Assembly: GCA_028683855.1 (NCBI GenBank)
Contig: JAQUHA010000019.1
Coordinates: 12,622 to 76,621, forward strand
DNA: 64,000 nt
Reading direction: 5' to 3'
DNA from: Desulfuromonadaceae bacterium
GTDB taxonomy: Bacteria > Desulfobacterota > Desulfuromonadia > Geobacterales > Pseudopelobacteraceae
Every line of letters starts with the position of its first letter. Within the stretch, counting starts at the first letter, position 1. Both the position numbers and the translations under genes were made by a program. A model generated the notes under the pieces. It was not told where the DNA came from. It saw only the letters and a list, made by a program, of their open reading frames with translations, and did not search any database. Positions 3,803 through 60,156 of this stretch are shown piece after piece.

Positions 3803-3882
3803 TGGAAGGTACTCCAGTCATAAAATGTGTGGCATTATGCCTGCTTGCCGTATGGATGACAACAAGGGAATTGGTAGAAACA

Positions 3883-4319: not shown

Positions 4320-6947
4320 CTATCTTAAGCCAAGGATAACCGTGCCGGCTGTCACGGCAACGTTAGCCAAAACTTGTGTCCAGTCTTTTATCTCTCTCAT
4401 CCATGCAGTTCTCTCAAGTTTTTGTGGAACAACCAGTGTGTCACCGGCTCCAAGCGAAGATGAAAGGAATCCGCCAAAGCTCCAATGACTCCCTTCAACA
4501 CTCCACTGCATACCGAAAGAAGATGATTGCTGACGACTATAAACCGTACCGTCTGCACGGATTATATACATCTCTGACGTTTCAGCATCCTTGGAGGGGC
4601 CACCCGATTTATTAAGATAATTTTCAACGCTATTATCAGGTTGATATATGAATGATGTTGGATTATAAACCTGCCCCATCACATTGACTACTCCAGGGCG
4701 AGGTGGAATAAAAAGCTTATCGCCCCCCTCCAGCAGTAGATCATACTCGCTAGTACTCAGATTATTAGCATCATTAAGCTGAATAACAACACGCCCCTCA
4801 GCTTTTAGGGTCTTCAGCCTGTCAATATTTTTTTTAAGCCCTTCCATTGAAGCTAGAGTTGCATCCAGCTCTGATTTAGAGGAGGCTATAGATGCCAACT
4901 CTGATTTTTTACTGAATAAATCAGCCTCCGTTTTTGAAAGGACATCATCCATTCTTTTTTGCTGCTGCTCCATTACGGAACGTCTGGTAAATTTTGCCCC
5001 GCGCAGATAAGCTTTATCAGTAAAACCACCTGCTCTATTGATAATTGAACTTAATTTTTCCCCCTTGTAAATCGGGTAAATTCCAGGAAAACGAAATTCA
5101 CCGGCAAGCGTTACATAGCGCTCAACCTCTTCCGTCCAGCTTGGAATTTTCCTCACTGAAAGCTCATCGAATGGCAAAAGAGTAATATTGTTTTCCGGAT
5201 CATTTTTAAGTGCCTTATCAAGATTGATTATCAAGGATGACATGGATACATTATCAGTACTCCGCTGCATTCGCGAAATTTCTGCATTCTTAAGAAAAGC
5301 CGTCATTTTTACGTTTCCGGAACTATAAATCAGGTCCCTCACAGTCATTCCCTTAAGAAGTCTATACTGACCTGGCTTCTGCACTTCACCGGAGACACGC
5401 ACATACGGCATCTCCTCCATATCCCATTTTGAATATATAGTTACGGTGTCAAACTCCTTAAGCTCCAGGTTGAAATCAGCTTCACCCGCTATCGCCTTGG
5501 CTGGGTTTATGACTATCATTTCAGGCTGATAACTCGGGGCGACCAGTCGATTAATAGTTCCAATGTTCTGGTGATATTCCGGCAGCAGGTTATCAGGAGG
5601 CAAAAGATCCGCCAATTTCATGCCCGGTTTTATAGCATAATCACCTGGTCTCAATACATAACCCGCTAAACGGACATAACCACGTACTGTGCTGTCAATA
5701 GGGAAAATTTTCACCAGATCCATATCTTTTATTGGAATATCTGCCGCCAAGGAATCTATGTTCGTGTCGGCAGACTGAGGCTCAAGATTTACGTCGACAA
5801 CACTTCTCTTCACATTGGCATCAACTCGCAATATTTGAAGCCGTTGGAGATATCCTGTAGAAACAATTCCGTCTGCAAGGTCAAGAAGATCTTTAAGTGT
5901 TTTCTCGTTTTTAAGCTCGAAAATTGCTGGGCGCCTCACGTTTCCAGATACTCCGACTACGGAACCTAATGATGGAATAAAAACAGTGTCACCAGATTGC
6001 AGTCGTATATCGCGGCTTTTATCCCCTTTTAGAAAAAATTCGTAGAGATCAACAGTATCTACAAGCTTGCCGTCACGCTTGATAGCGATAGAACGGAGGC
6101 TGCCGTTACGAGACGGCCCCCCTGCAGCCGAAAGTGCATTTAGAAGGGTTGACATTGATGATATATTATAATCCCCGGGAGCTTTAACATTTCCAACGAC
6201 ATACACCTTGATCATTCTGAGCTTACCCATTGTAACGCTCAGTTCAAAGTTTCTGTAAATACGCGAAAGCTGCCCGGTTAACAGCTGTGGAAGCTTGCCA
6301 AAGGTTACACCCGCAACTTGAACCGGTCCAACTTTAGGTATGACAACTTCTCCGTTGCGATTGACTTCAAGCGGCAATGATGCGTCTATTCCACCCCATA
6401 TTGTCAGATTAATCCGGTCTCCAGCCCCCAGAATATAGTCTGGTCCCACAGGGATATCACTTACAGCAACAAAAGGATCTGCGGCTGACTGGAAAAAATT
6501 GTAGCCAAATTGAGTGAGTCTTTTTAATGTAAACTTCTGTGGTGCTGTTTTAGTCGCATAATCGACGGAGTCGATCATAGCGGCTTCTACTGCTGAAGGT
6601 TCTGATACAATATCTGATACGACTTGCTGCCCGTCTGAACTGGAGTTAAGTGATGAATTGTTTTTTTGGTTAGCGTTTTGAAGAAATTCACCCGAACCTT
6701 CAGGAACTTGAGAGAGAGGGGTTGTCTGTTTACCAAAAGCTGATTCGGCACCCTGTGAGTATGTTGTGGTTGCAGGCGGTGCGGATGGCATAGCTACCTG
6801 AGAAGAGGGGATGCCAACTGCTGTAGCCGCCGAAATTACGGGGGCTACAGCAGTTGGCGCTACAGCAGTTTCAGCAAAAATATATGTTGCAGTACATACA
6901 GTAATCAAGAGCGCAGTTGCAACCGCTTTAAGCAGATTCTTCATCAA
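4320..6947 (-). CDS. polysaccharide export protein (Wza/KpsD-like Poly_export domain with several SLBB domains and a coiled-coil segment)
   Basis: Signal peptide. YILGAGDRINLTIWG is the Poly_export signature. The motif 'V.V.G.V..PG.Y.l..g.tl.dli..aGG' recurs at least 4 times (SLBB domains). The N-terminus has a low-complexity Ala/Pro/Ser linker. Confidence 0.8.
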   Translation of the reverse strand: MMKNLLKAVATALLITVCTATYIFAETAVAPTAVAPVISAATAVGIPSSQVAMPSAPPATTTYSQGAESAFGKQTTPLSQVPEGSGEFLQNANQKNNSSLNSSSDGQQVVSDIVSEPSAVEAAMIDSVDYATKTAPQKFTLKRLTQFGYNFFQSAADPFVAVSDIPVGPDYILGAGDRINLTIWGGIDASLPLEVNRNGEVVIPKVGPVQVAGVTFGKLPQLLTGQLSRIYRNFELSVTMGKLRMIKVYVVGNVKAPGDYNISSMSTLLNALSAAGGPSRNGSLRSIAIKRDGKLVDTVDLYEFFLKGDKSRDIRLQSGDTVFIPSLGSVVGVSGNVRRPAIFELKNEKTLKDLLDLADGIVSTGYLQRLQILRVDANVKRSVVDVNLEPQSADTNIDSLAADIPIKDMDLVKIFPIDSTVRGYVRLAGYVLRPGDYAIKPGMKLADLLPPDNLLPEYHQNIGTINRLVAPSYQPEMIVINPAKAIAGEADFNLELKEFDTVTIYSKWDMEEMPYVRVSGEVQKPGQYRLLKGMTVRDLIYSSGNVKMTAFLKNAEISRMQRSTDNVSMSSLIINLDKALKNDPENNITLLPFDELSVRKIPSWTEEVERYVTLAGEFRFPGIYPIYKGEKLSSIINRAGGFTDKAYLRGAKFTRRSVMEQQQKRMDDVLSKTEADLFSKKSELASIASSKSELDATLASMEGLKKNIDRLKTLKAEGRVVIQLNDANNLSTSEYDLLLEGGDKLFIPPRPGVVNVMGQVYNPTSFIYQPDNSVENYLNKSGGPSKDAETSEMYIIRADGTVYSRQQSSSFGMQWSVEGSHWSFGGFLSSSLGAGDTLVVPQKLERTAWMREIKDWTQVLANVAVTAGTVILGLR

Positions 6948-7140
6948 ATTTACCCCTTTGACTATTTAACTATTGATTAAGTTGAAGTGTAATGTGCGGG
7001 GCGATATTACGTTAGTAAATAGTAAAACGTCAATAACTTGATTTAAAACTACTATTTTGAATTTGCATCAATGATAATTCTGATGTAGATTAACGCCTTT
7101 AAAATATCCGTATTTTCAGTATACGAGGAGTTTTAAAAAT

Positions 7141-9054
7141 ATGCTGACTAAACGTCGTCTCTTGGTCTTTGTTTCAGATTTAATTATGATAGCGGCTGCC
7201 CTCTGCAGCGCTTTTCTACTGCGGTTTGACTTCATAATTCCATCAGCTCAGGCTGAACTTTTCTGGCAATGCCTGATGGTTGTTCTGATCGTAAAGCCGC
7301 TTGTCTTTCTGGTAACCGGTTTCTACAACAGTCTCTGGCGTTATGCGTCGGTGCAGGATGCAGTTGAAATACTCAAAGGTGTCACTATATCTTCGGTTCT
7401 AGCTGTCTCAGCTCTGTTTTTTCTTCGCCAGTTCACTCCGGTTCCACGCTCGATCTTTGTTCTTGATTTTATTCTTCTATTTACTCTGCTCGCCGCGAGT
7501 CGACTGATATGGCGTCTTTTGCGCGAGACTTACATCGTTGGGAGAAGTTGTGAAGGACCGCAGACTATCATTGTCGGCGCCGGTGAAGCGGGGAGTCTGT
7601 TGTTAAAAGATATACGAAGACAGCCCCATGCTGCTTATAATGTTTGCGGCTTTGTAGATGATGACCTCGAGAAAAAAGGGATGAAACTTCACGGGATTCC
7701 GGTTTTAGGAACTACAAAGCAGCTTAAGTCTCTAATCATCGCATACGAGATTGAAGATGTTATAATTGCAATGCCTTCAGCCAATGGCAAGACAATTCGG
7801 GATATAATAGATTCCTGCAAAAACGCAAATGTTACTTTTAAAACACTTCCTGGCATAAGCGATCTTATTGACGGTTCGCTGACAATCTCACAAATTAAAA
7901 ATGTTGAGATAGAGGATCTTCTCGGGCGTGAACCGGTACAGCTGGATAGAGAGCTGATATGCAATTATCTTACTGACAAGCGCGTTCTGGTGACCGGTGC
8001 CGGTGGCAGTATAGGGAGCGAAGTCTGCCGTCAGGTTGTTCAGTTCTCACCGGCAAAACTTATTTTACTCGATCAGTCTGAAACCGCACTGTATGAGATA
8101 GAGAAAGAGCTGGTTGCTAATTTTTCAAACGTAAGAATAATGCCTCTAATCGCGGACGTGCAGGATCGCGAAAAAATTATGGCGGCTTTTGAGGAGTTAA
8201 CTCCTGAGGTGGTATTTCATGCGGCAGCCTACAAGCATGTGCCGATGATGGAGTATAACCCGGCTCAGGCGGTTCTTAATAATGTATTTGGATCAAAGAA
8301 TATTGCTGATGCCGCCCATACATTCAAAAGCCGCAATATGGTTATGATATCCACCGATAAGGCGGTTAATCCGACTAACGTCATGGGGGCAACCAAAAGA
8401 GCTGCAGAAATATATATTCAGGCTCTTTCCAGAGCCAGCACGACCAAGTTCACTACGGTACGTTTTGGGAATGTTCTTGGGAGCAACGGCAGCGTCATAC
8501 CTCTGTTTAAAGAGCAGATCGCAAAGGGGGGACCGTTAACAGTTACAGACAAACGTATCATCCGATACTTCATGACCATTCCAGAGGCTACGCAACTTGT
8601 TCTGCAAGCGGGGAGCATGGGGCGCGGCAGCGAAATACTGCTGCTTGACATGGGTGAACCGGTACGGATAGTCGATCTGGCAGAAGAGCTTATCAGGCTG
8701 TCAGGCCTGACTCCGTATGAGGATATTGAGATCGTATTCACCGGCCTCCGCCCTGGTGAAAAACTGTTTGAGGAGCTGCTTATAGATGGAGAGGGGATAC
8801 TTCCTACTTCGCATGACAAAATAAAGGTTCTGGAGTCAGTTGACATAGACCTTGAATGGGTTAGAAATGAGCTTGACTCCCTGTATACTGCTGCACGCAC
8901 GAACTGCATCAAAGATATGATAGATATCATAAAGCGCCTGGTACCCGAATACAGACCTGCCTACAGCTTCAATGGCGATGCCCCACCGACGTTTCAACGA
9001 GTTCGTCCGGATCTTTTCCCTCGCACATCCAGAGTTGTTCAGATAAGGAAATAA
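7141..9054 (+). CDS. membrane-anchored nucleotide-sugar 4,6-dehydratase/epimerase (CapD/WbpM/PglF family)
   Basis: Four N-terminal transmembrane helices. Rossmann motif VLVTGAGGSIGSE. CapD-type catalytic region MISTDKAVNPTNVMGATKRAAE. Confidence 0.9.
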   Translation: MLTKRRLLVFVSDLIMIAAALCSAFLLRFDFIIPSAQAELFWQCLMVVLIVKPLVFLVTGFYNSLWRYASVQDAVEILKGVTISSVLAVSALFFLRQFTPVPRSIFVLDFILLFTLLAASRLIWRLLRETYIVGRSCEGPQTIIVGAGEAGSLLLKDIRRQPHAAYNVCGFVDDDLEKKGMKLHGIPVLGTTKQLKSLIIAYEIEDVIIAMPSANGKTIRDIIDSCKNANVTFKTLPGISDLIDGSLTISQIKNVEIEDLLGREPVQLDRELICNYLTDKRVLVTGAGGSIGSEVCRQVVQFSPAKLILLDQSETALYEIEKELVANFSNVRIMPLIADVQDREKIMAAFEELTPEVVFHAAAYKHVPMMEYNPAQAVLNNVFGSKNIADAAHTFKSRNMVMISTDKAVNPTNVMGATKRAAEIYIQALSRASTTKFTTVRFGNVLGSNGSVIPLFKEQIAKGGPLTVTDKRIIRYFMTIPEATQLVLQAGSMGRGSEILLLDMGEPVRIVDLAEELIRLSGLTPYEDIEIVFTGLRPGEKLFEELLIDGEGILPTSHDKIKVLESVDIDLEWVRNELDSLYTAARTNCIKDMIDIIKRLVPEYRPAYSFNGDAPPTFQRVRPDLFPRTSRVVQIRK

Positions 9055-9056
9055 AG

Positions 9057-10655
9057 ATGGTTCGCAAGTTTTTTTGTCTAATAAGCCTCGTACTGTCGTC
9101 AGCCACACCCTCCTGGTCTCTCTCTTCTGCCAATATCCCTCTCGATAGCCCCGTCTACTCTTATATCGAAAAACTGTCCGGTTTCGGTTTGATAACAACT
9201 GATATCAGAGGGGTCAAACCGTATAGCAAGGCTGAGGCTGCACGGCTTCTAATGGAGGCGGAAGAAAGGCTGAATAAAGCCGAAGTTCCTTTGGATCGTT
9301 TTGCAATTCAAGTAGTCGCAAGGCTGCGCGAAATGATTCCTCGCGAAATAGCCTTACGGGAGAATCCTGACAGAAAACCACGAACGATTGATTACAATCC
9401 GCTTTCATCACTACGCCTCCGCTATGTTTTTCTCGATGGAGCCGCTCGAAATTACCAGCGTGATGTCCACGACCCGGGAGACGATGGTGTATTTGGAATA
9501 GGCAGCGGCTTGAGACCCCCAAATCCCTATCCGTCAGCTGCTCATCAGAGAGGGGGCGAAGGAACCCCGCTTATTGAGAACAACAATGGCGTTATCTACC
9601 CTGACGGACATAATGGCGAAATTAGATGGGGGAGTGAGTTTTCAGTTTCTGATTCTGCAGTCGCTGTTCTTGAACCAACTCTGCAGAGTGATGGTGAGAA
9701 CACCTCCATACGACTGAATCGTGGTTATATCAAGATAGGTGGCAAATCCCTCGAACTGGAAGCAGGTAAAGATGAAAACTGGCTGGGGCTCGGCTATCGA
9801 GGAAATATAACTCTGACCAACAATGCGGAAAACTTTACAGAGATAAAACTATCGTCACCGGAACCTTTTGATGCACCATATATTGGCTCTATGAAATTCG
9901 CGTTTATCGCTTCACGTTTCGATTATAGCAAAGTAGGCAGCGTAGAACGTCAGCCCTGGTTTTATGCTTTGAAGCTTTCCACCCGACCGCTTGAAAACCT
10001 TGAGTTCGGATTCAACCTTGGGCGACAGGTGGGTGGTCCGGGGGTAAATAACGGTTTGGGGGATTCCCTTCGCGGCTTAATCGGTGGCACCAGCGATGAC
10101 AACTCCAATGGTCTTGCCGGCTTTGAAGCTCGTTATCGCATACCCAATCTCCGCAATATGGAGCTTTATGGTGAACTCTCCGGCGAAGACACCGCCCTTT
10201 TCTGGCCGATTGTTGAGAGTTATATTGCCGGCTTGTATATCCCGCGACTGACTGATGACGGGCGCAACGACTTCAGGTTTGAATTTTTTCAAGGGAATCA
10301 GATACTTTACACCCACACAACCTTCCCTGCCGGTTATATATACAAAAATATGCCGATTGGACACTCTCAAGGGGGAGCCACGCGCGATTTTTTCTTTCGT
10401 GCAAGCCACTGGTTCAATCCACGAAACAATCTGGCGCTGGAGTATTTTTATACTAATCGTGGATATATCGGGCGGATTGGTGCGCAGTCAATTGAGAGAA
10501 AGCATTCCGGCAGAGTTTTCTGGGATATACCGCTAACCGCCAATTTTGATCTCCAGCTTGGGTATGGTGTTGAAAAAATTCAGAATATGAATCTGGTGGC
10601 TGGAGTTGAGAAAACAAATCAGATAGCAAAGTTTGAGATCAGGTACAGATACTGA
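9057..10655 (+). CDS. outer-membrane beta-barrel protein, capsule-assembly Wzi-like
   Basis: Signal peptide. N-terminal helical motif IPLDSPVYSYIEKLSGFGLI as in Wzi-family proteins. Alternating beta-strand pattern throughout and a C-terminal aromatic residue (RYRY). Starts 2 nt after the dehydratase stop. Confidence 0.55.
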   Translation: MVRKFFCLISLVLSSATPSWSLSSANIPLDSPVYSYIEKLSGFGLITTDIRGVKPYSKAEAARLLMEAEERLNKAEVPLDRFAIQVVARLREMIPREIALRENPDRKPRTIDYNPLSSLRLRYVFLDGAARNYQRDVHDPGDDGVFGIGSGLRPPNPYPSAAHQRGGEGTPLIENNNGVIYPDGHNGEIRWGSEFSVSDSAVAVLEPTLQSDGENTSIRLNRGYIKIGGKSLELEAGKDENWLGLGYRGNITLTNNAENFTEIKLSSPEPFDAPYIGSMKFAFIASRFDYSKVGSVERQPWFYALKLSTRPLENLEFGFNLGRQVGGPGVNNGLGDSLRGLIGGTSDDNSNGLAGFEARYRIPNLRNMELYGELSGEDTALFWPIVESYIAGLYIPRLTDDGRNDFRFEFFQGNQILYTHTTFPAGYIYKNMPIGHSQGGATRDFFFRASHWFNPRNNLALEYFYTNRGYIGRIGAQSIERKHSGRVFWDIPLTANFDLQLGYGVEKIQNMNLVAGVEKTNQIAKFEIRYRY

Positions 10656-43771: not shown

Positions 43772-44518
43772 TCAATGAGGCTTAGCGGCGTCAATGTTTA
43801 TATTTTTTCCAGCTGGTGTGAGTTGACGCAGAAAAGCCACATAAGCCCCTGCTCCACCCATTTCGCGAGGTGCCGGAGCAAATTCAAGAACGGTCGCTTT
43901 ACCTGCATCACGAAGCCAGGCGGCAACAGCCTGATGAAGCACAGGCTCTTCAGCAGAGTGTATCCCCTTGCCGGTAATTATCAAAACTGCTTTTTGCCCC
44001 TTCTGCTGTGCAGATTGTAGAAAAGGGGCGAGCGCCTCCAGAGCCTCTTCACGCGTCAGACCATGCAGGTCAAGCTGGTAATCCACTGACACAACACCAC
44101 GCCTTACCTGTCGGAGGCGATTCCCGGCAAGAGGCTGTAATTCATCCTCATCAGGAAGGTCGTCGCAGAATTTGGTGTCCATCTTAAGACGGCTGATCTC
44201 TTCTGCAAAAACAGCTGCTTCAATAACAGCCGCTCTTTCAGCACCCATTGCAACTTCTTTCTGTATTTTATGCAGCTGATTTTCTTCTGGCTTAATCTGT
44301 TTTTTCACCGACTTGCCGATTGGAGTTACATCAGCAAAAGCCTGAAGAAAAAGATTCATTCCGCACTCTGGCGACTCTTCAGTTTTAGTTACAACAGTTT
44401 TGACCGGCACATCAATGGCAGGTTCAGGTAGGACAACCCCTTTTAGTGAACTAAAAGGGGTTACTTGAAACTCTTTAGGCCTGGGGATGCTCGCAGGGCT
44501 CTTTTTTTTCTTTGCCAC
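43772..44518 (-). CDS. Smr-domain protein
   Basis: C-terminal Smr domain: LDLHGLTREEALEAL...AVLIITGKGIHS...VLHQAV..WL. Confidence 0.8.
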   Translation of the reverse strand: MAKKKKSPASIPRPKEFQVTPFSSLKGVVLPEPAIDVPVKTVVTKTEESPECGMNLFLQAFADVTPIGKSVKKQIKPEENQLHKIQKEVAMGAERAAVIEAAVFAEEISRLKMDTKFCDDLPDEDELQPLAGNRLRQVRRGVVSVDYQLDLHGLTREEALEALAPFLQSAQQKGQKAVLIITGKGIHSAEEPVLHQAVAAWLRDAGKATVLEFAPAPREMGGAGAYVAFLRQLTPAGKNINIDAAKPH

Positions 44519-48487: not shown

Positions 48488-49336
48488 ATGAAAAAGTTAT
48501 GTTTCCTGCTGATCTTTATTCTCGCCTGCGCAGTTTCTGCTTTTGCGGCATCTTCCTATGATAAGGATATAGTTATTCTGGATCAGAGCAGAAACGACAA
48601 GGTCACAGCTGTTTTTAAAGAGATGATTGATTCCTACAGAGAAAAGGATGTGAGAGGTTTTTTTGAGCATATATCTGAGGATCGTTTTATACAGGATTAC
48701 ATGACATTTCATGAAGCTATCTTACTTGATATGAGGATGCAGGATATCCTGAGCGTCGATACCTGGATAAATAAAATTACTACTGACGGCATTAAACGCT
48801 ACCTTTATGTACGATGGGAAAAGAGGTATGAAGACACTGATTCAGACAAAGAGATCAGGCAACTGGGTTCTTCAAGGTTTCTTTTTGATGAAATTGATGG
48901 TGAATATAAGCTTGTTGAGATTGCCGGAAACCACTTTTGGGGAGGAAGCCTCCCTGAATGGAAAGCCGAAGTTCCTCCAATCTCTGGTCAGGAAAAAGAG
49001 ACCACAGTAAATGCAGCTGGCTTGAATATTCCACCTACTGCCAACGCGGGGACGAATCAGCGGGTTGTTACCGGCTCTGTTGTAACTCTGGATGGTAGCG
49101 GCAGCAGCGATGCAAACGGCGATACACTAACTTATACTTGGAGCGTATCATCCAAGCCTGTCGGAAGCACAGTGGCGCTCTCAAGTAAATCAGCCGTAAC
49201 TCCTTCATTTACAACTAATTCCGTTGGTACTTATATTTTCAATTTGATAGTTAATGATGGGAAAGTTAATAGCACCATATCTACTGTCAAGGTAGTGGTA
49301 ATCGCAAATAGCGGTTCTATTTCGGTTGGTTGGTAA
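48488..49336 (+). CDS. secreted protein: NTF2-like N-domain plus one PKD/Ig-like domain
   Basis: Signal peptide MKKLCFLLIFILACAVSAFA. C-terminal ANAGTNQRVVTGSVVTLDGSGSSDANGDTLTYTWSV...GTYIFNLIVNDG is a PKD-type repeat. AAAGGAG Shine-Dalgarno. Confidence 0.75.
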   Translation: MKKLCFLLIFILACAVSAFAASSYDKDIVILDQSRNDKVTAVFKEMIDSYREKDVRGFFEHISEDRFIQDYMTFHEAILLDMRMQDILSVDTWINKITTDGIKRYLYVRWEKRYEDTDSDKEIRQLGSSRFLFDEIDGEYKLVEIAGNHFWGGSLPEWKAEVPPISGQEKETTVNAAGLNIPPTANAGTNQRVVTGSVVTLDGSGSSDANGDTLTYTWSVSSKPVGSTVALSSKSAVTPSFTTNSVGTYIFNLIVNDGKVNSTISTVKVVVIANSGSISVGW

Positions 49337-49347
49337 GGGAGAGACTA

Positions 49348-50643
49348 ATGAAATCAGGATATTTATTTACATTGGGCTTCCTGTTAGCAACGATGCTGAC
49401 ATTATTTACGGGATGCGGCTCAAATAGCGCAGCAACTAACACATCAAAAAGTAACGGCACAGGCTCGATAACCGCCAAACTGATATGGTCTGACGACAGC
49501 TCAATATCAGAAACCAAATCTACGGCTAAAGCAGCTGACGGTGTCGTTACTGTCAGGATTATTGTCTCTGGCACGGGCTTTTCAGATATACAGAAAGATT
49601 TCCCTGCCGTAGATACTGGCGGTGTTATCGATGAGGTGCCTGCCGGTGGCGGACGTACCCTAAAGGCACATGGGCTTAACTCAAACGGCGTTGTCATATA
49701 CCAAGGGGAAATTAGCAACATTACCGTTCAAGCCGGTAAGCTTACAGATATTGGGGTTATTGAAATGCTTTCAGTCAATGTTGCTCCGATGGCAAATGCA
49801 GGGGCAAATCAGAGTGTAATTTCAGGAAGCATTGTAACGCTCAACGGAAGCGGGAGCAGCGACGCGAATGGTGATTTGCTGACATATAGCTGGACTTTCT
49901 CCTCTAAGCCAGCAGGGAGCAGCACTGTTCTCTCAGCTACAGCTGTTGCGAATCCAACATTTACAGCCGATGTTACAGGCACATATATTTTGGCGTTGGT
50001 GGTTAACGACGGGACTGCAAACAGCTCTGCTGCCTCAGTTACAGTTACCGCGTCAGACGCCAACGCTGCTCCGGTGGCAAATGCAGGGGCAAATCAGAGT
50101 GTAATTTCAGGAAGCATTGTAACGCTCAACGGAAGCGGGAGCAGCGACGCGAATGGTGATTTGCTGACTTATAGCTGGGGTTTCACATCTAAACCTGTAG
50201 GAAGCAGCGCGACTCTCTCAGCTACAGCAGCCTTGAATCCCACCTTTACTGCGGATTTAGCTGGAAATTATGTTTTAAGTCTGGTGGTCAACGATGGGTC
50301 TTTAAATAGTGCAGCGGCTTCAGTCACCATTACAGCAACTATTGGCTATCCTGATCTGATTATCAGTAATATAGAATGTCCAATGTTTGGCGGTGCAATG
50401 CCAATCTCGTTCGATATTGTAAATACAGGATCTGTCACAGCATTGGGACCAATTGAATACGTCCCTTCTTGGAAGTATCTGTCAACTGACGTAAAAACAT
50501 ATATCGGCAATATCCCTGCAGATAGCTCAATTCACATTGAAACGCTTTCGGACTGCTATCCTGCTGACAATAATTCTGTCGTAGTCGATCCCAACAATCT
50601 CATAACAGAGTCAGACGAGACCAATAATTCAACCGGATTTTAA
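49348..50643 (+). CDS. lipoprotein: Ig-like domain, two PKD-like repeats and a C-terminal CARDB-like domain
   Basis: Lipobox LFTGC. Two copies of ANAGANQSVISGSIVTLNGSGSSDANGDLLTYSW. The C-terminus (PDLIISNIECP...VNTGSV...VVVDPNNLITESDETNNS) resembles CARDB. ATG at 49348 with GGGAG upstream. Confidence 0.75.
   Translation: MKSGYLFTLGFLLATMLTLFTGCGSNSAATNTSKSNGTGSITAKLIWSDDSSISETKSTAKAADGVVTVRIIVSGTGFSDIQKDFPAVDTGGVIDEVPAGGGRTLKAHGLNSNGVVIYQGEISNITVQAGKLTDIGVIEMLSVNVAPMANAGANQSVISGSIVTLNGSGSSDANGDLLTYSWTFSSKPAGSSTVLSATAVANPTFTADVTGTYILALVVNDGTANSSAASVTVTASDANAAPVANAGANQSVISGSIVTLNGSGSSDANGDLLTYSWGFTSKPVGSSATLSATAALNPTFTADLAGNYVLSLVVNDGSLNSAAASVTITATIGYPDLIISNIECPMFGGAMPISFDIVNTGSVTALGPIEYVPSWKYLSTDVKTYIGNIPADSSIHIETLSDCYPADNNSVVVDPNNLITESDETNNSTGF
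49782..50351 (+). repeat. tandem 285-bp (95-codon) PKD-module duplication with a nearly identical 5' segment
   Basis: 49790-49883 is identical to 50075-50168 (94 bp), flanked by single mismatches at 49789/50074 and 49884/50169. The rest of each unit has clearly diverged. Confidence 0.9.
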
Positions 50644-52257: not shown

Positions 52258-55200
52258 ATGCGCAAGATCATATCTTATCTGTTTCTTACAGTGCTGTTAT
52301 TTTACGGAGAGACAAACGCAACCACATTAAATGTTGCACAAATGGCCTCTATCAGTCCGGTAATTGTGACCAATGCGGGATTGATTGATGAGATTATGAT
52401 CAATGGGAGGCGCTTTGATTCCCTCAACAAACGAACAATTGAATTTTACAAAGATGATCTGAAAGATGGAAAAGTTCTTATTACCGGACTTCTGGAGCGC
52501 GAAGATGGGGGCGCTTTGGATGATTTACAGGTCGAGATAACCACAGATGGAGGGACAACATGGAGCCGCGCGGCGGGTCATGCCAACTGGGAATGGTTTT
52601 TCCAACCTCAAACAGGCAAAACGTACGAGTTCTCGATCCGCGTTGTTCAGGCGATCCCTGCCAGCGATCTGATAATTCCCGTACCTTCTACATTAAGTAT
52701 CGCCGGCTTTTCATTTACCCCCGACAGTAGTGCAACCCTGGTAGGCGGGCTTCTTAGCGGAACCGGAAAAATCACCATACCTTATTTTGAACAGTTCTCG
52801 CTGCCGCAGGATGTCGCTGTAGCTTTTGATGATTTGAATATTGCCAACGGCGTGGTGATTTCCGGTAAAGTGACCAGTCAGACCCCATTCACATTATCAA
52901 CAGATGCAGTAGATATTTCCGTCTCAAAGCTGGTTATCTCTGCGACACCTGATCACAGCACACTTGAAGGCAGCGCAAAACTGAAAGGTTTTCTCGGGGC
53001 ACTGCCCGTGCTACCCCTTGAAAACGGCAGCAAACTCCTGGTGAGTTCGTTTCAGGCTAGCGTAGCGGTAAACTCGCAATCATTCGTTATCTGGCAGGAA
53101 AAAGGGGTCAAGCTCACGCTTGGCGATGGCTCCGTCCGTGTGAATTATAATCTGGGTGACAGCAAAACGACGCTTGACCTGAGCGGTTTAACGACTTCGG
53201 TAAAATTCGGTACTCTGCTGACTGATGCCGCCAACACGAGTGACTCGATAACGGCATCTCTTTTATCGGCAGTCGGAACGGTATATTCTCTCCGGACAGT
53301 TGGTCAGGCATATCTGCTGAATAGTGCGATTACCCTGAACAACGCGGCAATGAGCATTGATATTGCCGATATCAATGCGCCAAAAATTACCTTGAACAGC
53401 TCAATAGATTTTTCCGGTTACAACCACGCAATCATAAAGAAACTTACCGGTGGCACCATTACTGCGGATATTTCCAAAACCGGATTTAGCGCTGCTATCA
53501 GTTTTGCCAACGCATTGGCTCCGGCAACTCTACTTAATCGCGGCGGGCTGGACAAAAATGTCCGGATGGAATTCACTGCTCCCCCTGAATTCTCAATTTC
53601 CATAGCGAAAAACGGTGATCTACCGACATTTAATCTTAACGGTTTATCAGCCAAACTGAACTTCGGCGATCTTTTGACAAACGCCAAGGCGCAAGGTGCT
53701 GAAACGGCAACATCGGTGGTGGCGAATATTGCCTTTGCTGCGGACTCTGCAAGTAATGTGATCCTCTCTTTTCCTGAAACCGCAGTTGCCTATCTGCCTG
53801 GAGGGAAATTTGGGCTGGCCGGTATTAACGCAAGTTTGAATCCTGGGGATCTTTCCGTGTCAATCAATGCCAGCGCCAATCTCGATGCCTATGCTGATCC
53901 GGTTTTCAACGCCTTCAGCGGGACAGCTGTACGGGTTGCGGTCGCCTCGACGGGGGTTACGGCAAGCCTGACGGCTGACAGCGGAATAGATCCAATCGTT
54001 CTTATGAATCGGGGCGGGGCTGGAAAAGATGTGCTTCTCACTGTTAACGGGACTCCATCGGCAACTCTGACGATCGGCGGCAATACGGTCGATTTAAGCT
54101 TTGGCGCATTAAACGCCTCGGTAAAATTTGGCGATATCCTTCAAAGCGCCAAAGGCTCTTTTGCACCTGTTGTAGCAAGCCTGCAAAGCGCCGCCGATAA
54201 TGCGCGACAGTACACACTTTCCTTTCCAAACGGTCCTCTCTATCTCCTTGGCAGTTCGTTCGGGCTTGAAGGGGTAAGTGCAGGCTTCAACCTCGGCGAC
54301 AAAACGATCAGCCTGACCGGCAGCGCCAATCTCCAGGATTACAGCGCTCCGCTGCTGAAAGCCATGAGCGGCTCCACGCTCAGCGCGACCATCGCCCCGG
54401 CAGGTTTTTCCGCCACACTGACGCCAGTCGGCCAATTAGCCCCCTTCACCGTTCTTGATCGCGGCGGTTCCGGTAAAGACGTGCAGGTCGCCTTTACCAC
54501 TCCACCAACGGTTCGTCTCACTCTACGGGGTGGGGATATTGATTTTGGCTTGGACGGCGGGTCTGCCGAGATCCGTTTTGGTGATCTGCTGGAGCAAGCC
54601 GTTGCTACGTTGACCGCACAGCAAAACGAAGCACGGCAGACAATTAGCGGTATGTATAACTGGAGTCTGGAAGGGCGCAGAAAGCTTATTGACGAGTCCA
54701 AAATGTTTCTTAGCTCTCTCAAAGGATCACTTGATCTGAAAACCATAACCACTCCGAAGATCTCTTTCAATGCTCAGGCGGATCTGCATGAATACGGCGG
54801 ACTGTTCTCCACGGTAACCAATGCGCAGCTCAGCAACGCGCTTATTTCAGGGGCAGGAGTAAGCGGCACACTCGCCGTCAATATCGGCAGTATTGATATC
54901 TGGCAGGAAAAAGGGGTCAAGGTCGTATTTACTGAAAATCCATCGCTCCGTTTTGCTCTTGGCGGCAGCGGATTTTCACTCGGCTTTGCAAGCATCGCCG
55001 GAAATCTGAATTTTGGGGCATTACTGGAAAATGCCGTCGCGGAAATCAGGAGAGCTACTCCTGACACCAGTGAGCTTGAAGTTGATGCCAAAAATGCTAC
55101 AACCACGGCGACTGCCGAGATGCTCTGGAATATCAACGGAGCTAAAAAGCTTGCAGGGAGCACCGTCTCTCTACAAAACCTTGCCGGTACGCTTAATATT

Positions 55201-58200
55201 GCCGATATTTCCGCCCCTTCGATTAGCCTTAATGCCACGGCAGATCTTAGTCAATACGGTGGAATATTAAGCAGCGTCAGCAGCGCCGCTCTTGAAGGTG
55301 TAACCATCTCGAAAACCGGCTTGAAAGGGACATTGTCTACCTCGCTCCGGGAGATCGATATCTGGAAAGACAAAAACGTCAAGCTCTCTCTGACCACCCC
55401 CGCGAAGTTCAAGCTGGATGTGACAAGTAGCGGCGTCAGCGTTGGCATTGGTGAGCTGAATGGTTCGGTTGATTTTGGCGATCTGCTGAACAATGCCACG
55501 GCACAGCTTAACACTGTCAGCAACGGAGTGCATGGCTGGGCACTGAATGAGGTACATGCCCTCGATAGTGGCTCTATCAAGTTACAGAACCTGGCGGGGC
55601 AGGTCGATCTTACTGATTTGAGCAAACCCCGGATCGGGATGAACGGGCAGATTGATCTGAAGGGTTATGGCGGTATTTTCAGTCAGCTTGAACCGGTTGC
55701 CGTAGAGAATGCAACCATTACTCTGGATGGCTTCAAGGCCGATGTCAGCGTGCCGCTGGTGGCGGTTGATATCTGGGAGACAAAAAAAGTCAAGGTGAAC
55801 TTTACCGGCGCAACACCGCCACTCCTGAATATGGCCGTGACACGCGACGGATTGAAAGCGGGGCTTTCTAATCTGAGCGCGAAACTTCAGTTCGGTGATC
55901 TGCTCGGCGGTATTGAGGCGGAGCTGACGCAGGCAGTAGGTCTGCCAACGCAGCCATCGCTTTATAAATGGAGTGTGCCAGATGTTCCCAATCCCCGAAC
56001 CCTGCTCACCGACAACCTGGGTAGTGTAACCGTTTCAGGTATAAACGGGACATTCAACCTGAGTGACCTGTCCAATCCTGCCATTGTCTTTGACGCCGCC
56101 GCCGATTTCAGCAGCTATTCGTTACCAGGATTCACTCTTAGTACGGTTGCGCTTGACGATGCCCGGATTTCTCGCAGCGGCATCGAATGGAATATGAGGG
56201 TGCAGGGGGAAACAACCATTACGGTTCTCGATCTTGGCGAAGAGAGCCAGGATGTCCGTCTCGTCCTTGCCGGATCGACCACTGCCGGAACAAACGGCGT
56301 AGGAGCTGACGGGAGTGCAAAGCTCTATTTCGGAGCGTTGTTCGACAGCGTGGAGCCGGTCGTTCTCGTGAAGGATGGGAATAATTTCACCTTTCCCGCC
56401 ATCAATAAAACATTCACCTATATCAAAGCAGGGCAGAGCATCAGTTTTTCCGACCTTTACGGAACAGTTACAAAAGTTGGAGACGCCTATAAAATCTCGC
56501 TTGGCGGCACGGCAGAGCTCCAATCAACCCTCCTTTCTAAAATCGGAACGCAGAGCATAAATTTCAGCGACCTCGAAATCAGCAGCGCCGGTTTCAAAGG
56601 GTCTATAAATGCAACATGGATCAATCAAACCTTTGATATTTTAGGCGGCAAAGCAAAAATTGTCCTCAGGAGCGCAACTGTTGCTATCGATTCAAGCGCC
56701 ACGCTGCCAATCAAGCTGACAGCGCTTGACGGAAGCCTGGATCTGACTCCTCTGTTTGCCGCCGGGCAGTCAGCACTGGGCGCACTCTCCATGAACGGAG
56801 CGCAGCTTGGCTGGACTCTGCCAAACGCATCGTTCACTTACAAAGATAATTTCATCTTCAAAAACCTGAGCGGCACTCTTGATCTTGACAACCTGACGAC
56901 ACCATCAATCGGTTTGTCAGGTAACTTCAGCTACAAAGGTATTACCGGCCTCGACCTTGCGCTGAACAACTTTTCCGTCACCGCTGCCGGTTTGAGCGGC
57001 ACGGTTGCCCTCGCCAACGGGGCTATTGCTGTTGGAACTCTTAGTGGGCTTAAGCTGACATCCTTGAGCGCGACCTTCGGGGGTACGGATACTATCTCCG
57101 GCTCAGTTGCCCTAACTTACAGTAACAACAGCTTTCTCGGTTCCGGAAAAGCTGTGAACCTGGCGTTTGGGGCAAACATAAGTGAGAACGGCATTGGCGA
57201 CTTGACGCTCAGCGGCACCGCTCCAAATGTAGAAATTGCGAATTTTGCCAAACTGATATTTACAAATGTCGCTGCAACACCTGCGTGGGAAAACTTCTCT
57301 ATCACCCTCGACGGCACCGTAAAACCGGACAATCCTCTATTTAAAGCTGCGAGCAGTCTTGAGTTAAAAGGACTTAAAATATCAAGCAGTGGTATTAGTG
57401 TTGAGGGCGCAGGAATGGAATTTGACGTCAGCGGCGCCAATGCTTTGCTGGGTGGTTTTCCTCTGAGTATCAGCAAACTCGGTATCGGATTTGATGATAG
57501 TACATTTTACCTGAGTGCTAAAGGTGAGCTTAGCCTGGATATTGCGAAAGCCGGCGCCGGTGTCAAACTAAAAAGCAACGGTGGACTGAGCGTTGACAAT
57601 ATCTCCATTGCAGTCACTCAACCGGCAGTGAGTTTTGGCGGTGAAGTTGCCTGGTATAGCAGCGACCCGACTTTTGGCAATGGTTTTGGTGCGTCGGGAC
57701 TTTCTCTCAAAATAGCTGAGATGTTCAGCGTAACCGGTACATTTAAAACAGGTACATCAACAGGCGGGCGATATTGGATGGCCAAAGCACAGGGGGGCCT
57801 TGGAGGCGGAATCCCGATGACACCGCTGCCACTTAGCATATACGAAGCAGGCGGCGGTGCAGCGTATAACATGACGTATAGAGAAGCGGAAAAAGATTTT
57901 GTGCCGGGCAACGCTAAGAACGTCGTCATTATCCTTTCATCCCTGATCGGTACTAACGATGTCGGTTATACTTGGCATGGCCAGTTTGAAATAGCGTTGG
58001 ACAGTGCAAAGCAGATTACCGCCACGGGAGACAGCTACCTGCTCAGCGAAAAAGATAAAAAACCTGGCGATAGAAAGATCTCGGCAATAGCGACATTGAC
58101 GTCCGACAGTTTCCAGATCAACGGAGATGCCAACATTACCTACGAAATTTTCAACTTTAACGGTAATCTGGATATCCTGATGAGCTCAAGCGCCCAGCAT

Positions 58201-60156
58201 GTTTACGTCGGGACAAACAGAGACATGGTCAGTATCAGCCTTGTTCCTTTGGGGCTAAGTGCGCGTGGCTACTTCATGATCGACAACAGGCAGCTTGCTT
58301 TTGGGGCACTGTATGAACTGAAGAAGAGATTGTCTCTCGACTGGTGGGGACCAAATCCGTGGGTTGCCATTGACGCTGAAGCGGGAGCTGAAGGGCGAAT
58401 CTATTACAATCCGTTTTTCATGGATCTTGGCGCACATGCAGCAGTAACGCTTTCAGCCGGATATGGCAGCGTATTCAGCGGCTCACTCGGTATGGGCATG
58501 GATCTCCGTTTTAGAGCGCCGGATCCGACTTATGCCAAGGTGAAGCTTAAATTCTATCTGCCGGTTTACGATGGCTGGGTTTCATTTACCACCTATTTCC
58601 CTTCAAAACCCGCCAGCGTCAGCAGTGACAGCTATCCTCCGTTAATCAACGAGATCGAACCGGGTCAGGATAGTGATGTTTCGCTCTTCCCTGCTCTTAC
58701 CGTATCGACGACACTTGCAAGCGATGGCACGCTGTTTGCCAAAGATGACAGCATTGAGGAAAAAGACAAAATATACCACTCTGAGGTAGTGGGGCTGAAA
58801 TTAACCGACACGCAGACAAATCAGAATATTCCGTTGGCAACAAAACTGGCAGCGGGAAACGAGCATGAATTCATCCCACGCCAACTGCTGGCTCCCGGTC
58901 ACAGCTACACCTTCAGTGGAAAAGTTAATCTCCTGAAAAATAATAAAGTTGTCAAAACTGACAGTATCAATAAAACCTTTGCTACAACTACGGCTGATGA
59001 ACTGAAATTTGACGAGATCATCGAACTGGTTACCCCGCTGCCATTGGCCGTCAATGTAATGAATGAAGTACAAATCGTAATGAAGTATAAGGACATCATC
59101 AATTACCTGCCGAGAAGGGAGCAGGATCCGCATGTGCAGTACCGGCTGAAGGTTACCAACCAGAAAGACGAGGTAATCACCGGAACGACTTCCTATCATG
59201 AGGCGACGCGCAGCGTGATTTTCCAGCCAGGCAAGGATCTGGTGCGCGCAGTCTATTATTGCCGCTATGAGGCGACTGGAGAAGTCAGGAATACGGTCAA
59301 AAACGACAGGGGAGAGTATCTGAATCCGTTCAAAAACTTCCAGGTAGATAGTGTGCAGAACGCATCTTCGGGCAATTCCTCTGCTCTTTCTCTTGCAGGC
59401 AGTGCCACTGCACATACAGCTCATCTGGACCGTTATACCTACTATACCCATGACCGCTACAAGATCACAATTACTGACCCTGTCGAGAAAGTGGTTTATT
59501 TTTCGACATTTACAGCGAAGCACAGCCTGACCGCCACAGAAAGCCTACAACGATTTGATGGGATGAATGAGCGGCTCGATCCCTCTCTTTCAATAATGAC
59601 GGATACGGGTGATGCCAAACGGGTCTACCTGAAAGTCAACTCCGCTTTGGGCGCTATCGGCATCGAAGAGGGGATTGGCCTTGGTTATCGTCTGACAACA
59701 ACATGGCAGGTTGAGGGTGGAGCAGATGTTATCATCACCGATAACCATGAGGCATACTGGCCGGACAAATATATGCTCGATCTCGGCGTCAGGAAAAACT
59801 TCACGCTTCCGGTCAGCGCTCTCAAAAGTGCTGTTATCGAGTATTACAACACAACCACCAACGCGGCTCTGCTTACGCAAGTAGTGCGGATAGTCAACGG
59901 CGGAACGACAAACCAGAGTCAGCATGAAGCGGATATGCAAGGTGTAGCCGATAGAGTGAAAGGGACCTCTGGCAGGGGGCAGCTTACTGGCAGTGTGGCG
60001 GGCGCAGGTGGTTTTACAGGTGTAGGTGGCATGGCTGGTTCCGGTGGTTTTGCCGGCTCGGGCGGTGGCGGTTTGGCTGGAGGAGGCCTGCAGGGGGTGG
60101 AAGGCATTGGTGGTGATATTGGAGCGCAATTAGATTTTCAGGGGGGTGGACTATGA
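52258..60156 (+). CDS. giant (2,632-aa) secreted repeat protein of unknown function
   Basis: Uninterrupted 7.9-kb ORF with a GAGGGG Shine-Dalgarno and signal peptide MRKIISYLFLTVLLFYGETNA. Asp-box TTDGGTTW (52540-52563). At least 8 modules of about 150 aa. Ig-like C-terminal domains. Gly-rich tail. Apparently only one Cys. Confidence 0.88.
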   Translation: MRKIISYLFLTVLLFYGETNATTLNVAQMASISPVIVTNAGLIDEIMINGRRFDSLNKRTIEFYKDDLKDGKVLITGLLEREDGGALDDLQVEITTDGGTTWSRAAGHANWEWFFQPQTGKTYEFSIRVVQAIPASDLIIPVPSTLSIAGFSFTPDSSATLVGGLLSGTGKITIPYFEQFSLPQDVAVAFDDLNIANGVVISGKVTSQTPFTLSTDAVDISVSKLVISATPDHSTLEGSAKLKGFLGALPVLPLENGSKLLVSSFQASVAVNSQSFVIWQEKGVKLTLGDGSVRVNYNLGDSKTTLDLSGLTTSVKFGTLLTDAANTSDSITASLLSAVGTVYSLRTVGQAYLLNSAITLNNAAMSIDIADINAPKITLNSSIDFSGYNHAIIKKLTGGTITADISKTGFSAAISFANALAPATLLNRGGLDKNVRMEFTAPPEFSISIAKNGDLPTFNLNGLSAKLNFGDLLTNAKAQGAETATSVVANIAFAADSASNVILSFPETAVAYLPGGKFGLAGINASLNPGDLSVSINASANLDAYADPVFNAFSGTAVRVAVASTGVTASLTADSGIDPIVLMNRGGAGKDVLLTVNGTPSATLTIGGNTVDLSFGALNASVKFGDILQSAKGSFAPVVASLQSAADNARQYTLSFPNGPLYLLGSSFGLEGVSAGFNLGDKTISLTGSANLQDYSAPLLKAMSGSTLSATIAPAGFSATLTPVGQLAPFTVLDRGGSGKDVQVAFTTPPTVRLTLRGGDIDFGLDGGSAEIRFGDLLEQAVATLTAQQNEARQTISGMYNWSLEGRRKLIDESKMFLSSLKGSLDLKTITTPKISFNAQADLHEYGGLFSTVTNAQLSNALISGAGVSGTLAVNIGSIDIWQEKGVKVVFTENPSLRFALGGSGFSLGFASIAGNLNFGALLENAVAEIRRATPDTSELEVDAKNATTTATAEMLWNINGAKKLAGSTVSLQNLAGTLNIADISAPSISLNATADLSQYGGILSSVSSAALEGVTISKTGLKGTLSTSLREIDIWKDKNVKLSLTTPAKFKLDVTSSGVSVGIGELNGSVDFGDLLNNATAQLNTVSNGVHGWALNEVHALDSGSIKLQNLAGQVDLTDLSKPRIGMNGQIDLKGYGGIFSQLEPVAVENATITLDGFKADVSVPLVAVDIWETKKVKVNFTGATPPLLNMAVTRDGLKAGLSNLSAKLQFGDLLGGIEAELTQAVGLPTQPSLYKWSVPDVPNPRTLLTDNLGSVTVSGINGTFNLSDLSNPAIVFDAAADFSSYSLPGFTLSTVALDDARISRSGIEWNMRVQGETTITVLDLGEESQDVRLVLAGSTTAGTNGVGADGSAKLYFGALFDSVEPVVLVKDGNNFTFPAINKTFTYIKAGQSISFSDLYGTVTKVGDAYKISLGGTAELQSTLLSKIGTQSINFSDLEISSAGFKGSINATWINQTFDILGGKAKIVLRSATVAIDSSATLPIKLTALDGSLDLTPLFAAGQSALGALSMNGAQLGWTLPNASFTYKDNFIFKNLSGTLDLDNLTTPSIGLSGNFSYKGITGLDLALNNFSVTAAGLSGTVALANGAIAVGTLSGLKLTSLSATFGGTDTISGSVALTYSNNSFLGSGKAVNLAFGANISENGIGDLTLSGTAPNVEIANFAKLIFTNVAATPAWENFSITLDGTVKPDNPLFKAASSLELKGLKISSSGISVEGAGMEFDVSGANALLGGFPLSISKLGIGFDDSTFYLSAKGELSLDIAKAGAGVKLKSNGGLSVDNISIAVTQPAVSFGGEVAWYSSDPTFGNGFGASGLSLKIAEMFSVTGTFKTGTSTGGRYWMAKAQGGLGGGIPMTPLPLSIYEAGGGAAYNMTYREAEKDFVPGNAKNVVIILSSLIGTNDVGYTWHGQFEIALDSAKQITATGDSYLLSEKDKKPGDRKISAIATLTSDSFQINGDANITYEIFNFNGNLDILMSSSAQHVYVGTNRDMVSISLVPLGLSARGYFMIDNRQLAFGALYELKKRLSLDWWGPNPWVAIDAEAGAEGRIYYNPFFMDLGAHAAVTLSAGYGSVFSGSLGMGMDLRFRAPDPTYAKVKLKFYLPVYDGWVSFTTYFPSKPASVSSDSYPPLINEIEPGQDSDVSLFPALTVSTTLASDGTLFAKDDSIEEKDKIYHSEVVGLKLTDTQTNQNIPLATKLAAGNEHEFIPRQLLAPGHSYTFSGKVNLLKNNKVVKTDSINKTFATTTADELKFDEIIELVTPLPLAVNVMNEVQIVMKYKDIINYLPRREQDPHVQYRLKVTNQKDEVITGTTSYHEATRSVIFQPGKDLVRAVYYCRYEATGEVRNTVKNDRGEYLNPFKNFQVDSVQNASSGNSSALSLAGSATAHTAHLDRYTYYTHDRYKITITDPVEKVVYFSTFTAKHSLTATESLQRFDGMNERLDPSLSIMTDTGDAKRVYLKVNSALGAIGIEEGIGLGYRLTTTWQVEGGADVIITDNHEAYWPDKYMLDLGVRKNFTLPVSALKSAVIEYYNTTTNAALLTQVVRIVNGGTTNQSQHEADMQGVADRVKGTSGRGQLTGSVAGAGGFTGVGGMAGSGGFAGSGGGGLAGGGLQGVEGIGGDIGAQLDFQGGGL
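52750..56345 (+). repeat. protein-level tandem array of about 150-aa modules marked by the motif [KNRQDY]-F-G-x-[LI]-[LF]
   Basis: The motif Phe falls at aa 317, 469, 624, 774, 919, 1073, 1212 and 1358 (nt 53206, 53662, 54127, 54577, 55012, 55474, 55891, 56329), giving spacings of 139-155 aa. The units are diverged at nucleotide level. More degenerate units appear to continue to about aa 1750. Confidence 0.8.

Follow-up and report, generated by a model that had tools for sequence, protein, structure and literature searches.

Giant secreted repeat proteins are common, and those that come with a dedicated outer-membrane barrel are a known kind. The closest described systems are the AsmA/TamB proteins, the two-partner secretion (TPS) pairs TpsA/TpsB (FhaB/FhaC) and the type I secreted adhesins such as LapA, SiiE and MpIBP; for part of the family described here, FecA-FecR signalling has to be added. 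We analysed a 64,000-nucleotide (nt) stretch of contig JAQUHA010000019.1 from a Desulfuromonadaceae bacterium, called the window below, and in it the gene for a protein of 2,632 residues, called the giant. This protein is 100% identical to the hypothetical protein PHN84_10560 of a Desulfuromonadaceae metagenome-assembled genome (MAG). Its gene is the fourth of five co-directional, tightly packed genes (gaps of −7, 11, 25 and −4 nt), g1, g2, g3, the giant and g5. Our preferred explanation, with a probability of roughly 0.45, is an uncharacterised Sec-dependent fibre system associated with the outer membrane, made up of g1, g3, the giant and g5 and with the giant as its main subunit; both location and function are what we infer. 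These four genes make up a system that is coherent and conserved and for which we found no name in any source, and a literature search returned nothing on the giant or its family. The system differs from the known kind in the fold of its repeats, in its partners and in its link to signalling.

The gene is a single frame on the plus strand (52258-60156; 2,632 codons) with a ribosome-binding-site-like AGAGGGG upstream of its ATG. Its product comprises a signal peptide, an Asp-box domain, an array of modules, a core rich in glycine and aromatic residues, two probable immunoglobulin (Ig)-like domains, a linker, a C-terminal domain and a Gly-rich tail (Table 1). The first-pass annotation of this DNA had the frame and the order of domains essentially right, as it did the signal peptide and the presence of a single cysteine, which we located at residue 2335; the linker and the C-terminal domain between the Ig-like region and the tail were absent from its list, and the four-gene cassette, the relation of the core to DUF6603 and the FecR/CHASE2 coupling in relatives are likewise additions to it. 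The N-terminus (MRK, 13 hydrophobic residues, then TNA and TT on either side of the predicted cleavage site) reads as a Sec signal peptide and has equivalents in the relatives. No second segment resembling a membrane helix was found in the giant, where hydrophobicity over a 19-residue window reached at most 1.51. Signal peptides are present on g1, g2 (there together with a lipobox), g3 and g5 as well. A scan for promoters and terminators gave counts near the shuffle expectation.

With AsmA/TamB proteins the giant shares the character of a large all-beta envelope protein with amphipathic strands, and the gene for an outer-membrane beta-barrel, g3, directly adjoins its own. It is, however, twice as long as TamB, varies in module number between relatives and carries Ig-like domains in its C-terminal part, and the barrel is devoid of POTRA and Omp85 features. 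Indeed, Pfam detected no POTRA, Omp85 or ShlB domain in g3 and eight orthologues, which gave generic OMP_b-brl and DUF2490 matches. An AsmA/TamB-like groove protein had been offered as the alternative in the first-pass annotation. Our data did not bear this out. The Pfam families AsmA, AsmA_2 and TamB/DUF490 gave no match in the giant at E ≤ 1 and none in the relatives P0002, P0003 and P0005 at E ≤ 0.1, and hhalign profile comparison with TamB of E. coli K-12 gave probabilities of 0.2% for the modules, 1.8% for the divergent modules and 0.5% for the core. The beta-taco fold of TamB was not recovered either: the model of two modules had no match in the PDB, and no TamB was among the top 50 matches of the C-terminal model. 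The N-terminus is predicted to be a cleavable-type signal peptide rather than the inner-membrane signal anchor of TamB. Since the number of detectable modules ranges from 7 to 11 among the relatives, a periplasmic bridge of fixed length is hard to reconcile with this family. Membership of the AsmA/TamB family was rejected, with domain, profile, fold, signal-anchor and Omp85-partner tests all negative and the module number variable.

The likeness to TpsA/TpsB pairs lies in a Sec-exported, beta-rich giant with a conserved domain after the signal peptide, long repeats, a distinct C-terminal part and an adjacent outer-membrane barrel. In contrast to TpsA, the giant has no haemagglutinin repeats and its module model no match to a beta-helix, and it comes with two more conserved partners, g1 and g5. 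No TPS or haemagglutination-activity domain was detected by Pfam in the giant or in the members of the profile of its N-terminal domain, where weak BNR matches were the only ones. Two-partner secretion was rejected as this domain is absent and g3 lacks POTRA and ShlB domains. With the type I adhesins the giant has in common its size, its scarcity of cysteine, a stalk of repeats in variable copy number and distinct terminal domains, and by this analogy a role in adhesion or at the surface is plausible. The giant differs from the RTX and BIg adhesins of this type by its Sec signal peptide and by a repeat fold for which we found no solved counterpart. Pfam detected no RTX, BIg or VCBS repeats in the giant, and genes for an ATP-binding cassette transporter, a membrane fusion protein or TolC were missing from the eight annotated locus contexts. 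A type I secreted RTX/BIg adhesin was rejected on these grounds. Searches with the giant in Pfam, NCBIfam and PDB sequences returned no match, which upholds the initial impression that no named adhesin family fits.

The order g1-g3-giant-g5 was found in all eight metagenomic loci examined and persists between giants of no more than 23-26% identity. Among 15 loci from species-representative genomes, g3 lies upstream of the giant in 14, g1 was found at 12, and g5 follows in each of the eight where the contig reaches far enough. In Campylobacterota the cassette is carried by Sulfurimonas, Sulfurospirillum, Halarcobacter and other Campylobacterales, and in Desulfobacterota by Desulfuromusa and Desulfobacteraceae, besides the Desulfuromonadaceae genome of the window. 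The g1 protein shares 39-63% identity with the product of the first cassette gene of seven other loci; its C-terminal domain is a PKD domain in the window and a CARDB domain in seven of eight orthologues. Five of nine g3 orthologues matched OMP_b-brl (best E = 5e-8) and three DUF2490, and their C-terminal beta-signal follows the pattern ...KLSFxxNF with an invariant terminal Phe. For g5, eight orthologues were aligned (alignment A9). PKD, CARDB and fn3, the domains of the partner proteins, are typical of extracytoplasmic binding proteins. Some variation was seen around this arrangement. One Sulfurospirillum MAG (CAZBPU01) carries two copies of the N-terminal region of the giant (L015 and L019), and no g3 was detected upstream of the L015 copy. 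A MotA/MotB pair lies upstream in locus L002 and is not mirrored in the window, where the open reading frame at 43772-44518 encodes a Smr protein.

The array of modules makes up the largest part of the giant. The motif FG[DAT]L[LF] occurs eight times with a period of 139-155 residues, and the eight clear modules are 19-38% identical to each other in pairwise comparison. Self-BLAST of the giant returned no internal repeats, neither at E ≤ 1e-3 nor at relaxed settings, so that motif spacing and hidden Markov models (HMMs) were needed to reveal them. In a non-circular test, HMMs trained on modules 2-4 or on modules 5-7 recovered the left-out modules at 18-51 bits, against at most 5.1 bits for 200 shuffled sequences. 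As no tandem repeats were found in the gene at the DNA level, the module duplications must be old. Profile-profile comparison with hhalign further matched the modules to residues 1413-1745 (probability 98%, E = 1.8e-13), and the array therefore spans about residues 170-1745, that is some 1,575 residues. The array stands well above chance, and its extent is close to the earlier estimate of about 1,600 residues in modules of about 150 residues each. In a distant subfamily (P0011-P0018), BLAST showed that the unit equivalent to residues 1386-1785 or so is repeated three to four times.

The AlphaFold2 model of modules 5 and 6, obtained with an alignment of 27 in-register, non-overlapping module pairs of the same parity, reached a predicted local distance difference test (pLDDT) of 89.8 and a predicted template-modelling score (pTM) of 0.80. 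Each modelled module consists of about 11-12 short strands arranged as short-turned hairpins. To judge by the high pTM, the two modules pack rigidly together in the model. Structure prediction followed by Foldseek had been suggested with the initial reading; run on modules 5-6 and on the C-terminal part, it gave no match in the PDB for the modules and a match to tandem Ig domains with the C-terminal part. For the two modules, nothing was found in the PDB at E ≤ 1e-3 (best E = 0.065, template-modelling (TM) score ≤ 0.20), and the viral model library BFVD gave no match. That the predicted fold is without a solved counterpart in the PDB and among viral models is the most that can be claimed.

The N-terminal domain is the best-conserved part of the family. 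Alignment A7 showed a mean column identity of 58% with 22 invariant columns, compared to 34% for the family overall, and the domain is conserved in all relatives examined, including those that are only 23-26% identical to the giant. It was initially described as a domain of roughly 110 residues with a single Asp-box, in good agreement with the 100 or so residues found here and with the position of TTDGGTTW at residues 95-102 (nt 52540-52563). Pfam BNR matches were weak and occurred in 8 of 11 members. A further match, over 16 residues, links the motif to the Asp-box hairpin of an Ig-like domain of sulfite oxidase and is to be read at the level of the motif only. A sialidase-type BNR/Asp-box beta-propeller was rejected since there is one Asp-box in about 100 residues, and not several across about 350. 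Judged by its sequence, the domain is a small Asp-box-bearing domain.

The core was noticed at first as a region rich in Gly, Trp, Tyr and Phe at residues 1800-2100. It turned out to be a discrete conserved domain in which many columns of Gly, Trp, Tyr and Pro are invariant, with bounds better set at residues 1745-2140. Comparison with the modules by hhalign (1.5%) showed no relationship. Its model, with pLDDT values of 50-70, predicts amphipathic antiparallel strands of 10-17 residues. A search of 1.84 billion proteins with the core profile returned 1,875 cluster representatives at a threshold of E ≤ 1e-3, with 890 remaining at E ≤ 1e-10; the giant family in the strict sense accounts for about 45 of the clusters. 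Pfam DUF6603 (PF20248) was matched by five of 11 family cores (best E = 3e-7). The relatives P0002 and P0005 scored 29.5 and 29.3 bits, just above the gathering cut-off of 27, with only about a quarter of the profile covered (positions 321-443 of 502). The core of the giant itself gave no reportable score with DUF6603 and aligns together with the cores of the matching relatives. On this basis we consider it a putative divergent DUF6603-type domain. DUF6603 is a family of unknown function, and a literature search returned no mention of it.

Outside the giant family, the core occurs in secreted proteins of 1,200-2,100 residues, many of them from Bacteroidota and all labelled "hypothetical". In four of four distant loci, a gene for about 695-720 residues lies directly 3' of the core-bearing gene, and in the three tested it encodes a full-length homologue of g5 (hhalign 99.6-99.8%, E = 8e-30 to 8e-24). 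The presence of g5 homologues behind distant Bacteroidota cores argues that core and g5 are an ancient pair. The Asp-box domain, g1 and g3 are restricted to the giant family and co-occur only there. Genes for about 310 residues upstream of the Bacteroidota core proteins were tried as g1 homologues and rejected (hhalign 0.1-0.2%), and comparison of a 564-residue upstream protein of Spirosoma with g3 gave 19%. In one Bacteroidota-type metagenome contig (L029), the core gene lies just downstream of genes for a 2,167-residue fn3/PT-HINT protein and for Imm49, a polymorphic-toxin arrangement that was seen in this locus only.

C-terminal to the core, two Ig-like segments had been noted from the sequence. 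They lie at about residues 2170-2360. AlphaFold2 predicted this region to be beta-rich, and Foldseek gave a match to tandem Ig domains (domains A+B of LdtMt2, probability 1.0, TM score 0.37, aligned query range not reported); the sequence matches, however, are weak, with Big_5 in two of nine members (best E = 0.025) and a T-cell receptor V-domain at E = 0.18. The lone Cys at residue 2335 (about nt 59260-59262) lies inside this region as part of a conserved Y-x-Y-C motif, which most close relatives (P0002-P0006, P0008 and P0009) retain and in which P0007 has Ser for Cys. This Cys could serve as a site of intermolecular disulfide formation or modification. The C-terminal domain of about 170 residues is conserved in close relatives (alignment A11) and has no match among PDB sequences. 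The Gly-rich tail, already noticed in the initial reading, is confirmed by a Gly content of 37% in the last 80 residues. In many relatives a Gly-rich linker is followed by a conserved C-terminal motif [FM]NLGxx[FRI], where the giant ends in ...LDFQGGGL. To our knowledge, this motif fits no C-terminal sorting signal such as PEP-CTERM, GlyGly-CTERM, the C-terminal domain of type IX secretion or the classic beta-signal of outer-membrane proteins; it could act as a docking strand. Foldseek with the whole C-terminal model of 1,200 residues gave weak, non-specific matches (ROS1, ApoB100, LptD, Ig arrays; TM score ≤ 0.12).

Most Campylobacterota relatives carry an additional N-terminal extension of about 235-270 residues with a Pfam FecR domain (PF04773), located at residues 49-145 or so in P0003 and P0005. 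Neither the giant of the window nor any other sequence across the window is FecR-like. In six of nine FecR loci the cassette has a gene for a CHASE2 histidine kinase or cyclase as its neighbour, compared to none of 14 loci without FecR, the window included; two of the three FecR loci without such a neighbour are too short to judge. In E. coli, the FecR domain contacts an outer-membrane protein at its periplasmic portion, and the Sinorhizobium FecR-domain protein SMc02177 is encoded beside a CHASE2 cyclase locus (PMC5498481). Taken together, the FecR-CHASE2 association and, by analogy, the contact made by E. coli FecR suggest that the N-terminus of the giant is periplasmic in these relatives. 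Apart from this Sinorhizobium gene, a literature search on FecR, CHASE2 and giant proteins returned nothing relevant. The likeness to FecA-FecR signalling and to FecR proteins beside CHASE2 cyclases is thus found in the relatives, whose giants begin with FecR and have an adjacent CHASE2 gene; the window protein, in contrast, has neither, and the cassette lacks a sigma/anti-sigma pair and a TonB-dependent receptor. Two loci deviate from this pattern. In a 6.8-kb contig of a Sulfurimonas sp. MAG (L010), a CHASE2 gene (5825-6754) comes only about 1.8 kb after a FecR and Asp-box region (2996-4018); here either the contig is misassembled or the FecR-Asp-box protein is short and has no module array. 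Locus L009 has two stand-alone FecR proteins, one upstream of the cassette (1-1217) and one between g3 and the giant (4591-5991), and no CHASE2 gene within 6 kb.

From these data we propose the following course for the fibre system. All components carry signal peptides and would be exported by Sec. The Asp-box domain, which co-occurs with g1 and g3, would dock the giant to g3 and/or g1. About 10-11 rigid all-beta modules would then form an extended stalk, the length of which is set by the copy number. Core, Ig-like region and C-terminal domain may constitute the working end together with g5, as the pairing of core and g5 across phyla suggests. In relatives, the FecR domain, which is absent from the window protein, could couple the apparatus to the CHASE2 kinase or cyclase, so that the state of the apparatus is relayed through the inner membrane. 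Which partners bind each other and on which side of the outer membrane the array lies are parts of the proposal that we infer, as is the biological role; most likely, the fibre would sit at the surface or in the envelope and serve in attachment, the building of a matrix or the sensing of contact. The extracytoplasmic half of the first-pass term "extracytoplasmic fibre" fits the signal peptide and the secreted partners; the fibre itself remains a proposal. A more far-reaching version seems rather unlikely to us: here the cassette would be an envelope machine of a new kind, in which the non-Omp85 barrel g3 exports or anchors the Sec-delivered giant via its Asp-box domain. The fibre would consist of a repeat fold without solved counterpart, with the ancient core-fn3 pair shared with Bacteroidota as its working end, and in many species a FecR domain would wire it to CHASE2 sensors for sensing contact or surfaces across the envelope.

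Several points weigh against the fibre system. The barrel g3 has no POTRA domain or other hallmark of a known secretion system, and transport or anchoring by g3 is a proposal. PKD, CARDB and fn3 domains occur in periplasmic proteins too. The core is modelled with low confidence (pLDDT values of 50-70), which makes any role assigned to it tentative, and a structural relative of the modules may exist among predicted models of cellular proteins. Finally, given the FecR-CHASE2 link in the relatives, most or all of the giant could be periplasmic.

This last point leads to a periplasmic scaffold, in which the giant has its N-terminus close to the inner membrane and reaches g3 with its C-terminal end, resembling a bridge or belt without being an AsmA/TamB member. 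An all-beta giant with amphipathic strands, its dedicated barrel partner, the periplasmic N-terminus suggested for the FecR-bearing relatives and the lack of a recognisable domain for translocation across the outer membrane would all suit such a scaffold. We nevertheless regard it as unlikely. The giant resembles AsmA/TamB neither in sequence nor in profile or fold, the signal peptide at its start is of the cleavable type and no signal anchor, and its partner is not an Omp85 protein. The modules vary from 7 to 11 and, at about 1,575 residues, are long for the periplasm, and Ig-like, fn3, PKD and CARDB domains suit binding better than lipid transport.

A different placement follows if the core itself is a membrane-embedded beta-barrel or sheet that anchors the giant in the outer membrane in the manner of an autotransporter, with the flanking arrays in the periplasm or at the surface. 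The abundance of Gly, Trp, Tyr and Phe in the core, its predicted amphipathic strands of 10-17 residues and weak Foldseek matches of the C-terminal model to the LptD, OmpT, AlgE and PapC barrels point in this direction. These matches, however, have TM scores of at most 0.14 on a model with pLDDT values of 50-70, and the core profile matches no solved outer-membrane protein sequence. The core is moreover internal and not terminal, the C-terminus of the giant lacks the classic beta-signal that g3 carries, and a separate barrel gene is found upstream in nearly every genome locus. Self-anchoring is thus decidedly improbable. The same long amphipathic hairpins could also belong to a released effector or toxin that forms beta-pores in target membranes through its core and uses the modules as a delivery stalk; the module model has weak matches to leukocidin and haemolysin, and the L029 core gene has a toxin and an immunity gene for neighbours. 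We give this very little credit since the structural matches are not significant (E ≥ 0.065, TM score ≤ 0.2), the conserved cassette comprises neither an immunity gene nor a toxin domain, and the toxin neighbour occurs in a single distant locus. The probability beyond the fibre system and these three explanations is left to mechanisms outside this list.

Surface giants are unsurprising in themselves, and the function of this one is put forward here as a proposal. If g3 does export or anchor the giant, the cassette would represent a new route by which very large proteins are placed at the Gram-negative outer membrane. The module is confidently predicted and without a solved counterpart, and the 1,875 cluster-level relatives of the core are all unannotated. 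The carriers are sulfur- and metal-cycling bacteria of mineral, sulfide and sediment surfaces, where attachment matters. We know of no established input perceived by CHASE2 sensors, and the co-occurrence of FecR and CHASE2 provides a testable clue to it.

Table 1. Features of the giant, its neighbours in the cassette and a capsule cluster, with positions in the window
Feature	Position (nt)	Strand	Description and basis
Signal peptide of the giant	52258..52320	+	aa 1-21, MRKIISYLFLTVLLFYGETNA; sequence reading
N-terminal domain, ~100 aa, single Asp-box	52369..52662	+	aa ~38-135; best-conserved part of the family; alignment A7
Eight clear all-beta modules, ~150 aa each	52765..56343	+	aa 170-1362; every module ends in FG[DAT]L[LF]
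Divergent module copies	56344..57489	+	aa 1363-1744; hhalign; modelled as beta-meander, pLDDT about 70-80
Gly/aromatic-rich core	57490..58677	+	aa 1745-2140; profile search, Pfam DUF6603 in relatives
Two probable Ig-like beta-sandwich domains	58678..59343	+	aa 2141-2362; AlphaFold2 pLDDT 70-90
Low-complexity linker, predicted disordered	59344..59430	+	aa 2363-2391; pLDDT 26-40
C-terminal alpha/beta domain	59431..59943	+	aa 2392-2562; predicted strands and one 14-residue helix, pLDDT 62-77
Gly-rich tail	59944..60156	+	aa 2563-2632; terminal ...LDFQGGGL, then stop
g1, small secreted protein	48488..49336	+	conserved N-terminal domain of unknown type (~170 aa) and C-terminal PKD; Pfam
g2, predicted lipoprotein	49330..50643	+	lipobox LFTGC; two PKD and CARDB; Pfam, sequence reading
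g3, outer-membrane beta-barrel, 525 aa	50655..52232	+	signal peptide; C-terminal beta-signal ...KISLAMNF
g5, secreted fn3-array protein, 650 aa	60153..62105	+	Pfam fn3; start overlaps the stop of the giant by 4 nt
Wza-like Poly_export/SLBB protein	4320-6947	-	capsule/polysaccharide export cluster
Polysacc_synt_2 protein	7141-9054		capsule/polysaccharide export cluster
Wzi	9057-10655		capsule/polysaccharide export cluster

The second gene of the cassette, g2, is specific to the window: this extra gene between g1 and g3 is absent from all other loci examined, and its similarity to the small protein of the relatives is confined to the CARDB end. Identities of 45-55% between its PKD repeats and the PKD domain of g1 point to an origin of g2 by local duplication or a domain shuffle. 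Another observation concerned the relationships of the window cassette. The giant is 32-39% identical to the Campylobacterota-type proteins (L001-L003, L007-L009), compared to 23-26% for those of Desulfuromusa (L005/L020) and Desulfobacteraceae, and g3 and g5 are likewise closer to the Campylobacterota type. The GC content of the giant gene is 0.50-0.53 against 0.44-0.47 in its flanks. The identity pattern together with this GC content suggests horizontal transfer of the whole cassette; the higher GC content could alternatively stem from the codon bias of Gly and Ala. Elsewhere in the window, a capsule/polysaccharide export cluster (4320-10655) constitutes a second envelope-surface system, unrelated to the giant.

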